Source: Escherichia phage JP4. From it: a stretch of 64,000 nucleotides of DNA. The position numbers were made by a program, and so were the translations under genes. Shown piece after piece: positions 7,311 through 21,682 of the stretch (position 1 is the first letter of the stretch; every line of letters starts with the position of its first letter). The notes under the pieces are model-generated. The model saw only the letters and a program-made list of their open reading frames with translations. It was not told where the DNA came from and did no database searches. The DNA lies in the sequence record PQ330092. One strand, given 5' to 3'.

Positions 7311-7381
7311 TGTATCCTCCAAATGTAAATCGTTATTATATTTAGGACAAAAAAATGCCAGTACAAAATACTGGCTTTATT
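7311..7381 (-). promoter_or_regulatory. inter-paralog cassette: terminator hairpin, -35-less promoter, SD
   Basis: Minus strand: GCCAGTA-TTTTG-TACTGGC plus T-run, then TAAATATAAT.., then GGAGGA and ATG. Confidence 0.55.
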
Positions 7382-8587
7382 TTATATACCACGACTGGGT
7401 ATTTTATATAATTGAAATTTAGTGTAATAATCAGAAACTGTTGTACCTGTCGCTTGTGGGATATAGCCACTCAAATAAACATCCCCTTGATTATCCATAT
7501 ACACATTTGTACATTCACTTGGACAGAATAACTCGATGCTGCCAACTTTAGGTGCATCAACTGGAACTACAAATGTAGTACTTGATGTGGTATTACCGCG
7601 ACCGAGCCTACCATATGTGTTTATACCACACATATAAAGTGAATTGTTAGTTTTAACCGTAAGCCCACCATATGTTAATGAATTTGATTTCATTTCCATA
7701 TTATCTGATATTGGTAGAGTGGAGATTGTAGATAATACTGTCCCTGATGAAGCGGCTGAACTATTACCCAAGTTACCTTCCGATTGAATCCCACTTGCAC
7801 GAACTGTATATGTATTATTCGTGTTGTGTTTAGATACAACCCATGATGCACTCCCACCAAGTTCATAATGTATAACAGTATTGTTGGCTAATGCACCCAT
7901 TTGTGTCCATACTCTAATGTTAGTTTCACCATTACTTATACCAAGTGAACCCCATGTGTTTTGACCAGTGACCCAAAGTGTTTTATCAATTTTCTGCACA
8001 ATCACTGCACTTGAACCTGTTTTTACACTATCCACATTCGTATTAATTGAAGTAAATGTTGATAATCTTGTGGTTGTGTTATTACCAAAATATCCCTGTG
8101 TATTGGCCCCCATTCCATATAGCGTACCATTTTGAAGTAAAACAAAAATACCCTCCCCTACAATTTGAATGTCCTTAATTTGCGACAATTGTGTTGCATT
8201 GAATACTGATGTAAAATATGAAGTACAATCAGTATAAGTACTGACAGTACTTAATCCTGTACCAATAGCTCTACCTACGCCACTGTAATAAAATTTATTA
8301 TCTTCGGTTTGGATTAAATTAAAAGAACCTTGGGCTGTTCTAAAACGTTTTACATTTTGGTATATTAAAGCCCACTCTTTTACTTTCGCATTAGGTACAC
8401 CATTTCCGAATCCATAGTTTTGTGAACTAGTTCCACCTATACCCATTAAGTCTCCATTTTTATATAATAGTAAGAGTGCTGTTGCTGGAATAACTGACGC
8501 ACTATAACCATTGTAAATAAAGATTTCTTTCACTTCAGGAACTTTCATTTTATTTGCGTATTTTATCATCCTTGGAAAAGGTAACAT
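7382..8587 (-). CDS. RCC1-like beta-propeller repeat protein, MLPF-tag paralog #2
   Basis: Starts MLPFPRMIKYAN; repeated LY..G.N..G..G motifs; AAGGAGGA SD. Confidence 0.85.
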   Translation of the reverse strand: MLPFPRMIKYANKMKVPEVKEIFIYNGYSASVIPATALLLLYKNGDLMGIGGTSSQNYGFGNGVPNAKVKEWALIYQNVKRFRTAQGSFNLIQTEDNKFYYSGVGRAIGTGLSTVSTYTDCTSYFTSVFNATQLSQIKDIQIVGEGIFVLLQNGTLYGMGANTQGYFGNNTTTRLSTFTSINTNVDSVKTGSSAVIVQKIDKTLWVTGQNTWGSLGISNGETNIRVWTQMGALANNTVIHYELGGSASWVVSKHNTNNTYTVRASGIQSEGNLGNSSAASSGTVLSTISTLPISDNMEMKSNSLTYGGLTVKTNNSLYMCGINTYGRLGRGNTTSSTTFVVPVDAPKVGSIELFCPSECTNVYMDNQGDVYLSGYIPQATGTTVSDYYTKFQLYKIPSRGI

Positions 8588-8658
8588 AAAATCCTCCTTT
8601 ATTCATTATACTATATTTAATCAAAAAGAAAAGCCAGTGTTAAGTACTGGCATAAAAT
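8588..8658 (-). promoter_or_regulatory. inter-paralog cassette: terminator, -35-less promoter, SD
   Basis: Minus strand: GCCAGTACTTAACACTGGC plus T-run, ATTAAATATAGTATAATGAATAAAGGAGGA, ATG. Confidence 0.6.
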
Positions 8659-9828
8659 CTAAGCAGAAGGCATATTCTTCATCTTAATAAATGAAAATTG
8701 TGTACCAGTATTTGTGGTTTGATCAGTAAAATATGAATTACTCCCAGCCCAGTACAATTCATTATTGACTATACAATATATAACAGAACTCGAACTCTGT
8801 GAATACACACGACTTATATTTGATTGTTCTACTCCAGTACTGAACTGAACTACCCCCAACTGTGAACTTGGTATTACATTAGTTGGTCTACCTAAACCGT
8901 TAACACCCGCACCACCACCACATGTATATACTCCAGTACTATCAGTTGATATATTAACATAACCATTTCCGGCATTTTCAAATAGTATTTCACTGGGAAC
9001 AACACCAAATCCTGTAAGATCTATTTTCCTGAATGTAGTATAAACCGTAGAACCGCCAACACCTCTTCCACCATAATCATTCGAACCAGCCATATAGATA
9101 CTATATCCAGAACTTCCTAAACATAATAACTGTACGTTGTCATATAATATTTGCATAGATATAACGTTATCAGGAATACTCAATACCGTAAAAGTAGTTA
9201 AAGAAGAACTTCCAATATTACTACCAACCGATGTTCCACATCTGTAGTACTTACCGCCTTTTATATAATGGAACGATGAACCGCCTAACTTATGTGCTCC
9301 TATTTCACTTACCCCAGTATCTATAAGAATGGGAGATACAACTTTGTTATTAACACCTAACTCAGATCTACTGTTCATACCGAACCCATATAAACGACCA
9401 TCTAACATCAATATTAGTGTACTACCTGACGTACCTGCTGACGTAAATTCTATATTCTTTATTTGCGACACGTCAATACCTACAAATAATGAAGTTACTT
9501 CAGTCCAGTTAACATATGAACCACTAGCCCCAAAATATCCACCCATGTATAGTCCGGCACAATATAACTTATTATCAACAGTCTTTATTAATGTACCGGA
9601 TACACACGCCCAAAAATCATCAACTTCATAGGGTACATGTACCCAACCACCTAATACATCACTAGCATCCCCTGTACCTAATTTATAGTTCGAACCAGAA
9701 CCACGCATGTACATATTCCCTGTACTATAAAGTAATCCGACATGTAATTGACTACCATCCAATTTCTTTATTTCAGGAAGAGTTGGTTTAATATTTCCGT
9801 ACTTTAACATTCTTCCAAAAGGTAACAT
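8659..9828 (-). CDS. RCC1-like beta-propeller repeat protein, MLPF-tag paralog #3
   Basis: Starts MLPFGRMLKYGN; the SD overlaps the upstream gene's TAA stop (no cassette). Confidence 0.85.
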   Translation of the reverse strand: MLPFGRMLKYGNIKPTLPEIKKLDGSQLHVGLLYSTGNMYMRGSGSNYKLGTGDASDVLGGWVHVPYEVDDFWACVSGTLIKTVDNKLYCAGLYMGGYFGASGSYVNWTEVTSLFVGIDVSQIKNIEFTSAGTSGSTLILMLDGRLYGFGMNSRSELGVNNKVVSPILIDTGVSEIGAHKLGGSSFHYIKGGKYYRCGTSVGSNIGSSSLTTFTVLSIPDNVISMQILYDNVQLLCLGSSGYSIYMAGSNDYGGRGVGGSTVYTTFRKIDLTGFGVVPSEILFENAGNGYVNISTDSTGVYTCGGGAGVNGLGRPTNVIPSSQLGVVQFSTGVEQSNISRVYSQSSSSVIYCIVNNELYWAGSNSYFTDQTTNTGTQFSFIKMKNMPSA

Positions 9829-20412: not shown

Positions 20413-20485
20413 AAATCCCTCCTTATTCATTATACTATATTTAATACAAATAAGAAAAGCCAGTATCAAGTACTGGCATATCAAA
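20413..20485 (-). promoter_or_regulatory. inter-paralog cassette: terminator, -35-less promoter, SD
   Basis: Conserved cassette. Confidence 0.6.
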
Positions 20486-21634
20486 TCACTGCAAAAATGA
20501 CATATCGACTTCGGTATAATTAAGAACGTTCTGTCCAGCAATACCTCCCATTACTACAATTGAAGCCCCACAATAATATAACTTCGAAGTATCAGTAAGT
20601 ATAAGTGAACCAGATGGGGTGCGTACCAAATTACACGAAGTATTAAACGAAGTATATGAAGGGGTATAAGAGTACTGATTAATATTATTACCAACACCTA
20701 ATTGACCAGACGAGTTGCTTCCAGATGCATAAAGTACTTCATCACCTTTAACTATATGTGACGCCATGTTACCAACACAAGTATATAAACTATAAACTCC
20801 TGAACTCAATAATGTTGGAGTTTTGTATTGTATATCTGTAGATGAAGAAGTACCACCTGTGCCAAATTCGTTCCCGTATTGTGCACCGAACTGTTTACCA
20901 CATGCGTACAAATTATTATCTGATTTAATAAAAAATGTACTCTGATAACTTACATCAAAATCTATAACATCCGAAGCAATCATCGTCACCCCAGTAATAG
21001 AAGTTTGATTACCTGTACCTAACTGATAGTAATAGTTAAAACCACAACCCCATAAAGTATTATCTTCTTTTAGGTATATGTTACCAACTGCCTTTTTAAC
21101 CGAAGTTATAGTATCTACCCTTTTGAATGTGTTAAAAGAATTAATGTTTGTACCATCACCAAATGATGATAGGTTAGAGTTATTGTTAGCTCCACAACAA
21201 TACAATGTACCATCGTTTGTTATCAAATTTACCTTCATATCATTAAAACTACTCATGTATTTTATATCAGAAACATTAATACCACTGGATGTTATCCACG
21301 TAGTACATTCCGTCCACAAAGTTTTTCTATCAGTTACACCAGTGAATGCCTTCGTGTTACCAGTGATAAAAACTTTTCCAGTACCTTTCTCTTCATACAA
21401 TTGACAATCACTACTGTTATTTTCCAATAGAACTCGTTTAACATTCTCCGCACTAAGAATAAATTTACTCGACGCTACACCAGTTCCAGTACCCCAATTC
21501 GTCGCAGAAGATGCATACAACTTATCAGTATAAGTATCATGAAGATACATGGAATCACTGGAATATATTTTAAAACGTCCATCATCACCAGGGGCAATAT
21601 TCCCGTAATTCATCATTCTAACAAAAGGTAACAT
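20486..21634 (-). CDS. RCC1-like beta-propeller repeat protein, MLPF-tag paralog #13
   Basis: Trimmed to the MLPFVRMMNYGN start at 21634; contains GFNYYYQLGTGN and GSNSSGQLGVGN. Confidence 0.85.
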   Translation of the reverse strand: MLPFVRMMNYGNIAPGDDGRFKIYSSDSMYLHDTYTDKLYASSATNWGTGTGVASSKFILSAENVKRVLLENNSSDCQLYEEKGTGKVFITGNTKAFTGVTDRKTLWTECTTWITSSGINVSDIKYMSSFNDMKVNLITNDGTLYCCGANNNSNLSSFGDGTNINSFNTFKRVDTITSVKKAVGNIYLKEDNTLWGCGFNYYYQLGTGNQTSITGVTMIASDVIDFDVSYQSTFFIKSDNNLYACGKQFGAQYGNEFGTGGTSSSTDIQYKTPTLLSSGVYSLYTCVGNMASHIVKGDEVLYASGSNSSGQLGVGNNINQYSYTPSYTSFNTSCNLVRTPSGSLILTDTSKLYYCGASIVVMGGIAGQNVLNYTEVDMSFLQ

Positions 21635-21682
21635 AAATCCCTCCTTATTCATTATATCATATTTACCCCATAAAGAAAACCC
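21635..21682 (-). promoter_or_regulatory. -35-less promoter and SD of the first array gene
   Basis: Minus strand: GGTAAATATGATATAATGAATAAGGAGGGATTT then ATG. Confidence 0.5.

Follow-up and report, generated by a model that had tools for sequence, protein, structure and literature searches.

A repeated cassette of putative terminator, promoter and tag in the RCC1-like paralog array of Escherichia phage JP4: probable late transcription units and a probable substrate for gene shuffling

On the minus strand of Escherichia phage JP4, a tandem array of paralogous genes is punctuated by a block of about 100 bp that recurs in near-identical form in front of one gene after another. The array occupies positions 6887 to 21634 of the 64,000-nucleotide stretch of sequence record PQ330092 analysed here (the window), and the block, which we call the cassette, joins in fixed order a hairpin with a T-run, an AT-rich promoter-like stretch, a Shine-Dalgarno sequence (SD) and the first 12 codons of the gene behind it. 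We put a probability of about 0.65 on the reading that the cassette is a terminator fused to a late promoter, an SD and a protein tag, that most of the paralogs are separate late transcription units, and that the shared block mediates gene shuffling. An intrinsic terminator would come first and end the transcript of the upstream paralog; directly after it would stand a late promoter lacking a -35 element, whose core TAAATA would be the clade's counterpart of the TATAAATA-like motif of phage T4 and would presumably be read by host RNA polymerase with a phage gp55-like late sigma factor. Transcription would start 5-7 nt past TAAATA, inside the TATAAT stretch, and give a leader of about 20 nt in which the SD, AAGGAGG, is very strong, the first 12 codons then yielding a conserved, probably flexible N-terminal tag. 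Most paralogs would form late units of their own and a few would be co-transcribed pairs, all presumably encoding minor virion proteins, while recombination inside the block would add, remove, replace and reorder whole genes and would occasionally overwrite the tag and promoter of one copy with those of another. Gene addition, loss and reordering by homologous recombination are proposed because the same block flanks genes that are otherwise unalignable; promoter and terminator activity, late timing, the acting sigma factor and the recombination mechanism are what we infer.

Megablast with window positions 7000-22000 matched 36 jumbo coliphage records, including UB, ELP-22, E9.1, phAPEC6, 121Q, PBECO4 and G17, all of the genus Asteriusvirus (121Q/PBECO4-like), whose members are 350-kb Rak2-like myoviruses. 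The matches are patchy, at 87-97% identity, over genes annotated as 'regulator of chromosome condensation', and one window paralog shares 100% protein identity with its E9.1 counterpart. Eleven of the 12 intact open reading frames (ORFs) of the array encode RCC1-like beta-propellers, with RCC1 repeats and a seven-bladed fold: Pfam RCC1 and RCC1_2 scored above cut-offs in 4 of the 6 array genes scanned, and an AlphaFold model of one paralog is an all-beta propeller (predicted template modelling score, pTM, 0.81) whose top PDB matches are UVR8, the RCC1-like domains of HERC2, and RCC1 (E = 1e-22 to 1e-16; template modelling score about 0.75). The bodies of the paralogs are mutually 20-30% identical at the protein level, and all of the ORFs start MLPFxRMxxYGN, with M1, L2, P3, F4, R6, Y10 and N12 invariant; the first ~20 residues of the model are of low confidence and unstructured. 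The one intact product outside the propeller family is that of gene C, a Gly-rich protein assigned to phrog_4474 (unknown function), whose homolog in Salmonella phage 7t3 is annotated 'PE-PGRS'. Gene C has the tag and cassette of the propellers, so the 5' block is common to unrelated protein bodies, and since short non-RCC1 proteins in 7t3 and in Erwinia phage Kaldavass also bear the tag, the tag is a module independent of the propeller. Eight paralogs were detected by mass spectrometry in purified phAPEC6 virions, at low peptide counts (PMC7247149), and GAP32 gp1 is likewise a virion protein (PMC5259590); late expression of such genes is therefore to be expected. Two other views of the gene starts were considered. 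An upstream in-frame ATG offered by the ORF finder (MNKGGIM...) was rejected as the start, being in frame in some copies only, and no conserved Glu-type cleavage motif of the kind expected of a capsid-targeting sequence cut by a prohead protease follows the tag.

The 15-mer TAAATATAGTATAAT occurs exactly nine times, always on the minus strand and inside 7311-21682, and once more with two mismatches (TAAATATGATATAAT) at 21651-21665; at up to two mismatches, 1.5 chance matches are expected per whole window, and 12 were reached in 0 of 100 shuffles. The nine exact copies mark the junctions with a full block (Table 1), in which a hairpin and T-run are followed by (T)ATTAAATATAGTATAATGAATAA(A)GGAGG(G), 3-5 nt, ATG TTA CCT TTT and the remainder of the 12 conserved codons; with its variants, the promoter and SD stretch reads (T/G)(A/C)TTAAATATAGTATAATGAATAA(A)GGAGG(G). 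The hairpin, GCCAGTA(C)-loop-(G)TACTGGC, has a stem of 6-12 bp, a loop of 3-7 nt and a folding energy of -8.6 to -15.6 kcal/mol (ViennaRNA), and the T-runs are interrupted (TTTTCTTATTT). The ATG lies 16-17 nt past TATAAT and 25-26 nt past TAAATA. An earlier note on this DNA had counted ten near-identical junctions, extended the shared identity into the first ~15 codons and credited the first gene of the array with the promoter and SD part alone. The repetition is real, with nine full copies, and the tenth (7311-7375) is diverged and without TATAAT; when 58 cassettes of the window and six relatives are aligned (seven genomes in all; the CMSTMSU locus, whose array is full of frameshifts, was left out), identity collapses just 5' of the hairpin and past codon 12-13, earlier than had been thought; and the first gene (ATG 21634) indeed has no hairpin, because a divergent plus-strand promoter, TTGACA-N17-TACTAT, lies just upstream. 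An Rfam scan of 6500-22500 at E <= 0.1 returned no match, so the conserved leader and hairpin are not explained by any known RNA family.

Terminator-like sites are enriched in the array region, where 21 were found against 6.9 +/- 2.8 in shuffles, and either the terminator scan or folding with ViennaRNA picked out ten hairpins in the array. Each combines a G+C-containing stem-loop with a T-run and sits just past a stop codon, the canonical intrinsic-terminator form, and the record of phage G17 has ARNOLD terminators at the equivalent positions. We infer that the cassette hairpins are terminators and would end transcription of the gene before them. On the plus strand, too, the hairpin at 7375-7357 was scored as a terminator.

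Late promoters of phage T4 carry TATAAATA at -10, have no -35 element and are read by gp55 together with gp33 and gp45. The cassette resembles them, as the earlier note had supposed, in its single AT-rich -10, its lack of a -35, the virion genes downstream, the gp55-family sigma factor encoded in the genus and the avoidance of the motif elsewhere; it differs in that the core here is nTAAATA and in that the cassette's ATTAAATA matches TATAAATA at 6 of 8 positions. ATAAATA is the predicted late motif of the Rak2-like phages CBB and GAP32 (Buttimer et al. 2017, PMC5259590), and (T)ATAAATA or TAAATA stands upstream of the phAPEC6 genes for major capsid protein, scaffold, protease, sheath, baseplate wedge and many others. 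TAAATA is strongly depleted in the phAPEC6 genome (225 observed, 802 expected), its surviving copies are enriched in intergenic DNA (61-80% intergenic for the longer forms), and of the 61 phAPEC6 virion proteins verified by mass spectrometry, 35 have it in the 100 nt before their gene, compared with 77 of 585 ORFs overall (13%). The non-redundant part of the window (1-46905) holds 20 copies against an expected 104.5 +/- 10.6; ten of these are array promoters and an eleventh precedes the decayed 13th paralog. An A is enriched 6 nt 3' of the motif, at 22 of 30 non-RCC1 virion-gene sites, and likely marks the start of transcription, while the gap from TAAATA to ATG at the 30 reference sites, 17-70 nt, encloses that of the cassette. 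Across the seven genomes, 66 of the 79 tag-bearing genes have TAAATA 18-30 nt before their ATG and the remaining 13 are SD-only junctions, so that the motif is present in 66 of 66 cassette or first-gene promoters. The module TTAAATATA(G/A)TATAAT recurs in 7t3, the Kaldavass array opens with GGGTAAATACGTATAAG, and a TAAATA-N3-5-TATAAT subtype precedes four more phAPEC6 virion genes (gp077, gp179c, gp231c and gp274c), the last of them with a terminator directly upstream as well. The search for a gp55-family sigma factor was made in phAPEC6, the sigma gene lying outside the window, and identified gp237c, which matches phrog_12791 (E = 3e-154) and phrog_234, 'late sigma transcription factor' (E = 8e-18).

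A sigma-70 promoter would call for a TTGACA-like -35 at a spacing of 16-18 nt. No TTGACA-like hexamer at suitable spacing occurs in the cassettes, where hairpin and T-run fill -45 to -13 and the -35 position is TTTCTT or T-run; canonical two-hexamer sigma-70 sites are not enriched in the array region (82 against 80.1), and the cassettes are not among its matches at 10 or more of 12 positions. A T4 middle promoter with a MotA box was also rejected, TTCTTAT being a poor match at the wrong distance. The -10 of the cassette is likely TAAATA rather than TATAAT, and for gene A, to take one case, a late transcript start is predicted at about 20433-20431. The hairpin had been placed at the -35 position and the -10 about 17 nt from the ATG. 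The latter figure is right for TATAAT, and with TAAATA as the -10 the oddity of so short a distance is gone, the predicted leader being about 20 nt; the hairpin then falls at about -45 to -27, whereas with TATAAT as the -10 it would be the T-run, and not the hairpin, that occupies -35.

Nine intact genes have their own cassette directly upstream, the first has the promoter half, and genes O and H have an SD only; the 12 intact paralogs thus meet at 11 junctions, 2 of which are SD-only and would imply co-transcription. At one of these, the G/O junction (12288..12295), there is neither hairpin nor TAAATA, and genes G and O are therefore predicted to be co-transcribed. The homologous eight-gene array of Kaldavass has one TAAATA promoter and spacers of ~10 nt, and in 7t3 the cassette stands at some array junctions only; the per-gene cassette therefore belongs to Asteriusvirus and not to the gene family. 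A scan of IMG/VR with a 22-nt cassette core matched a single short contig besides 121Q itself, and the cassette therefore appears confined to this genus, while a 16-nt AT-only pattern gave more than 120 single matches, mostly by apparent chance in unrelated AT-rich contigs, and was uninformative. The proposal that each paralog is its own late unit accordingly survives for most genes, which are flanked by their own terminator and promoter, and fails at the two SD-only junctions and in the single operon of Kaldavass.

Between relatives, the array is a mosaic. Gene bodies from the seven genomes cluster into 27 orthogroups, of which the seven arrays are overlapping subsets, differently ordered and ranging in size from 8 to at least 14 genes. 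The hairpin-less first-position promoter is fixed at the array boundary and the gene behind it varies (E, P, I or M); gene E stands first, behind that promoter, in three phages, whereas in G17 and PBECO4 it lies inside the array behind a standard cassette, and genes A, K, H and N alternate between a cassette of their own and SD-only coupling. When the window was compared with the six relatives by BLAST, 47 of 58 homology-block ends fell inside the interval ATG-45 to ATG+70, and 57 of 58 within 30 nt of it, although such intervals make up 9-14% of the array; homology-block ends necessarily run into sequence common to all paralogs, and this clustering therefore proves gene-sized modules and not the exact crossover site. 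That the block would provide homology for shuffling of the array, as suggested beforehand, is borne out in that it marks the exchange points among the arrays of the seven phages.

The shared coding sequence is uniform at synonymous sites as well. Proline 3 is CCT in 79 of 79 Asteriusvirus genes (usage 0.28 in the gene bodies), GGG is used in 53 of 74 genes (0.10) and AAG in 51 of 54 (0.29), and the rare TAC is fixed as well; the same tag residues are written in mixed synonymous codons in 7t3, and the proline codon is CCA in 8 of 8 Kaldavass genes. Phage fEgEco12 has a private tag, VRMFDYGN or VRLFDYGN, in eight non-orthologous genes, orthologs of E, M, B, N and J have differing tags in different phages, and the tag of the decayed 13th paralog has drifted at synonymous sites (CTA CCC TTT CGA). 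These patterns argue for homogenisation at the DNA level, or a recent spread of the block, either of which would explain the frozen codons where protein-level selection alone would not. Nucleotide identity of the tags is 90% between orthologs, and between paralogs 81.4% within a genome against 79.1% between genomes (a difference reached in 0 of 2000 permutations), from which it follows that conversion is occasional and modest. The earlier idea that gene conversion keeps the block uniform is supported by the frozen codons to that extent; ongoing conversion is modest, and tags mostly track orthology.

How else might the cassette be read? The perfect TATAAT could be the working -10, read without a -35 by sigma-70 or by a phage RpoD-like sigma factor, with a start ~7 nt downstream at the SD and a leader of about 10-12 nt, in which case the genes need not be late. 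The hexamer is flawless, GTATAATG also occurs in the phage's many early promoters (AAAGTACTTGCA-N17-GTATAATG), the TAAATA-N3-TATAAT spacing is retained in the diverged cassettes of fEgEco12 and in 7t3, the T-run upstream could serve as an UP-like element, and the genus does encode an RpoD-like sigma factor with regions 2-4. We nevertheless hold this to be improbable: a -35 hexamer and a TG extension are both lacking; the critical last T has become C in four cassettes, and the hexamer is absent from the cassette at 7344 and the last cassette of 7t3 and reads TATAAG in Kaldavass, while TAAATA is kept each time and never altered; the products are virion proteins; and TATAAT is not depleted genome-wide (757 observed, 888 expected) as is TAAATA, which is depleted and positioned like a promoter signal. 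More improbable again, in our estimation, is that the array forms in essence a single late operon under a promoter at about 21665, its hairpins serving as RNA 3'-end or stability elements or weak attenuators and its AT-rich stretch serving translation as a standby site or enhancer before the SD. The single promoter and tight spacing of the Kaldavass array, the close packing of most of the 7t3 array, the two SD-only junctions of the window, the interrupted T-runs and the modest stems would all suit such an operon; against it, the internal cassettes bear the very motif found ahead of unrelated virion genes and avoided in the rest of the genome, the first gene and the internal promoters share one layout (TAAATA-N3-TATAAT-GAATAAGGAGG), and the hairpins have the form of terminators.

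Uniformity might, finally, come from purifying selection alone, acting on promoter, SD, initiation region, tag and AGTACT site, with gene orders arising by ordinary insertions and deletions and no gene conversion at all. Of the three alternatives this is the one we doubt least, though we still think it unlikely. Tags track orthology above genome, some cassette variants are orthologous (gene D retains AATAAGGAGG in 5 of 6 genomes), and AGTACT is under some genome-wide constraint; yet the 7t3 tag tolerates free synonymous variation, Asteriusvirus and Kaldavass have each settled on a different proline codon, rare codons are fixed, the private fEgEco12 tag is spelled with the same codons in all its non-orthologous genes, and where orthologs of E, M, B, N and J differ in their tags, each agrees with the genes beside it.

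Besides the limits already given with the breakpoint and tag data, several points weigh against late, cassette-driven units and cassette-mediated shuffling. The base just before TAAATA in the cassette is T and not the consensus A (T is found at 2 of the 30 reference sites), which makes the cassette a sub-consensus late promoter. TATAAT and its 3-nt spacing are conserved across genera, including Salmonella phage 7t3, and the hexamer may matter in its own right, either within a composite element or as an additional weak -10 of the sigma-70 type. The relative CBB has yielded no homologs of gp33 and gp45, the co-activators of T4 (PMC5259590), and the literature searched contains no start-site, 3'-end or expression-timing data for any Asteriusvirus. 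Repeats of ~100 bp could, moreover, cause mis-joins in short-read assemblies of the genomes compared.

Among described systems the nearest is the PeSL (promoter-early stem-loop) cassette of T4-like phages, in which a stem-loop terminator, a strong sigma-70 early promoter and an SD are repeated through hyperplastic regions and mediate modular shuffling and the formation of mini-circles (Arbiol et al. 2010, PMC2839356; Comeau et al. 2014, PMC4122927). Both are short composite intergenic blocks of stem-loop, promoter, SD and start, present in many copies and flanking the most variable genes, and in both the breakpoints of insertions, deletions and replacements between close relatives fall in the cassettes. 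The present block works alike without being a PeSL in the strict sense: the PeSL promoter is an early one with -35 and -10, whereas the cassette has a late TAAATA core and no -35; PeSLs lie among orphan genes and the cassette in a tandem array of virion-protein paralogs; and the homology of the cassette extends 36 nt into coding sequence, as a shared protein tag. The ATAAATA motif of CBB and GAP32 comes from the same clade, lies likewise upstream of structural genes and was reproduced by our phAPEC6 scan, but its description includes no repeated cassette, link to an RCC1-like array or shuffling, and CBB has no array (PMC5259590). The phage sigma factor phi32_gp36 recognises single-element promoters, tAATGTAtA, with a start 6-8 bp downstream (PMC8948821). 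It offers a parallel as a phage sigma reading one extended -10-like element without a -35, and differs in phage group, sigma family and consensus. Tail-fibre and depolymerase arrays of large phages combine a conserved N-terminal anchor with variable C-terminal domains, in repertoires that differ between close relatives. The array studied here is similar in its tandem virion paralogs, short shared N-terminal module and highly variable bodies, and differs in having RCC1-like propeller bodies and a shared module of only ~12 residues. The late motif in relatives (PMC5259590), the ARNOLD terminators (G17 record) and the multiplicity of RCC1-like genes (PMC5259590, PMC7247149) are already on record; in the literature searched, neither the composite cassette nor its part in the mosaicism of the array was found described.

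Table 1. Features of the paralog array and its junctions in the window (one strand, position 1 being the first letter of the stretch).
Feature	Positions	Strand	Details
Paralog array	6887..21634	minus	12 intact genes and 1 decayed gene
First gene, promoter half only	21599..21665	minus	TAAATA 21665-21660; TATAAT 21656-21651; AAGGAGGG; ATG 21634; codons 1-12
Gene A cassette	20377..20477	minus	hairpin 20477-20459; T-run; TAAATA 20443-20438; TATAAT 20434-20429; SD; ATG 20412; codons 1-12
Gene J cassette	19198..19297	minus	hairpin 19297-19278; TAAATA 19264-19259; TATAAT 19255-19250; ATG 19233
Gene B cassette	17957..18057	minus	hairpin 18057-18038; TAAATA 18024-18019; TATAAT 18015-18010; ATG 17992
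Gene K cassette	16694..16794	minus	hairpin 16794-16776; TAAATA 16761-16756; TATAAT 16752-16747; ATG 16729
Gene C cassette	15458..15558	minus	hairpin 15558-15539; TAAATA 15525-15520; TATAAT 15516-15511; ATG 15493
Gene C	14756-15493	minus	Gly-rich non-RCC1 protein, 245 aa
Gene D cassette	14649..14749	minus	hairpin 14749-14730; TAAATA 14715-14710; TATAAT 14706-14701; ATG 14684
Gene G cassette	13436..13535	minus	hairpin 13535-13517; TAAATA 13502-13497; TATAAT 13493-13488; ATG 13471
G/O junction, SD only	12288..12295	minus	stop codon overlaps SD (AATAGGAGGGAAT-ATG); gene O ATG 12287
Gene F cassette	10983..11082	minus	hairpin 11082-11064; TAAATA 11050-11045; TATAAT 11041-11036; ATG 11018
F/H junction	9829..10208	minus	remnant of the 3' part of gene F, then SD-only start of gene H (ATG 9828); no cassette
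Gene L cassette	8552..8651	minus	hairpin 8651-8633; TAAATA 8619-8614; TATAAT 8610-8605; ATG 8587
Diverged cassette of decayed 13th paralog	7275..7375	minus	hairpin 7375-7357; T-run; TAAATA 7344-7339; GGAGG; ATG 7310; no TATAAT
Decayed 13th paralog	6887-7310	minus	ATG 7310; MLPFRRIIT..., 52 codons, frameshift, RCC1-like sequence resumes in another frame

Two members of the array are damaged. Gene F is truncated to 269 aa and followed by a non-coding remnant of ~380 nt (9829-11018 together, minus strand), and since the truncation is identical in G17, UB, 121Q and phAPEC6 it is an old lesion that has been retained; the records of 121Q and UB likewise annotate the counterpart of the decayed 13th paralog as a split gene.

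The hairpin stem of the cassette contains AGTACT, a hexamer that is conspicuous far beyond the array. Together with CAGTAC and GTACTG it is the most over-represented of all hexamers, with 238 copies in 1-46905 of the window (about 16 expected), 913 in phAPEC6 (119), 53 in the 7t3 locus (6) and 103 in the Kaldavass locus (6). About 82% of the phAPEC6 sites lie in coding DNA, 28 of 40 in the array ORFs are in frame as AGT-ACT (Ser-Thr), and others are found in early -35 and -10 regions and near late promoters. No mention of AGTACT in jumbo phages was found in the literature searched. The E. coli Chi sequence GCTGGTGG is over-represented too, with 13 copies on both strands of 1-46905 (about 0.3 expected) and 27 in phAPEC6 (about 2), an excess to which Gly-rich coding repeats (GGTGGT) may contribute.

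Outside the array, 26792-46905 and 46906-64000 form an exact tandem direct repeat of 20,114 bp, with 0 mismatches over the 17,095 nt available. Its length fits the 20-21-kb direct terminal repeat of the genus (20,993 bp in fEgEco12, 20,668 bp in Sharanji), and the window therefore appears to span the joined ends of a linear record or concatemer. Each copy of the repeat (27150-46041 in the first) has about 22 highly similar early promoters of the sigma-70 type named above, each followed by a G+C-rich 5' stem-loop (e.g. GAGAGCGGGAAC...GTTCCCGC), an SD and a small ORF, an arrangement that resembles the PeSLs of T4-like phages. Just inside the terminal repeat, 27538-27816 (and 47652-47930) consist of degenerate repeats in an 8-bp register, of the types GGCTAGAC, GGCTAAAC and GGATGGCT, which could be an iteron-like or packaging-related array.

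More speculatively, cassette and tag may together form a plug-and-play diversification system, a portable block of late promoter, terminator and SD fused to a 12-residue docking or targeting peptide that would let Asteriusvirus gain, lose and reorder virion modules, whether on the surface or internal and whether RCC1-like propellers or unrelated bodies such as the Gly-rich protein, by homologous recombination, with the AGTACT core of the hairpin acting as a clade-wide DNA signal beyond termination; we regard this as a tentative idea. The analysis supplies a concrete, testable map of late transcription units for poorly studied 350-kb coliphages that are being proposed for therapy, and it would extend the PeSL idea, of regulatory cassettes that double as recombination sites, beyond the early orphan genes found in T4-like phages, to families of late virion proteins in jumbo phages. 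Cassette shuffling would also explain why the RCC1-like array is the most variable block among otherwise near-identical Asteriusvirus genomes. If the paralogs affect interaction with the host, swapping genes at the cassettes would let phenotype change rapidly, and the cassettes would also offer a natural insertion site for engineering.

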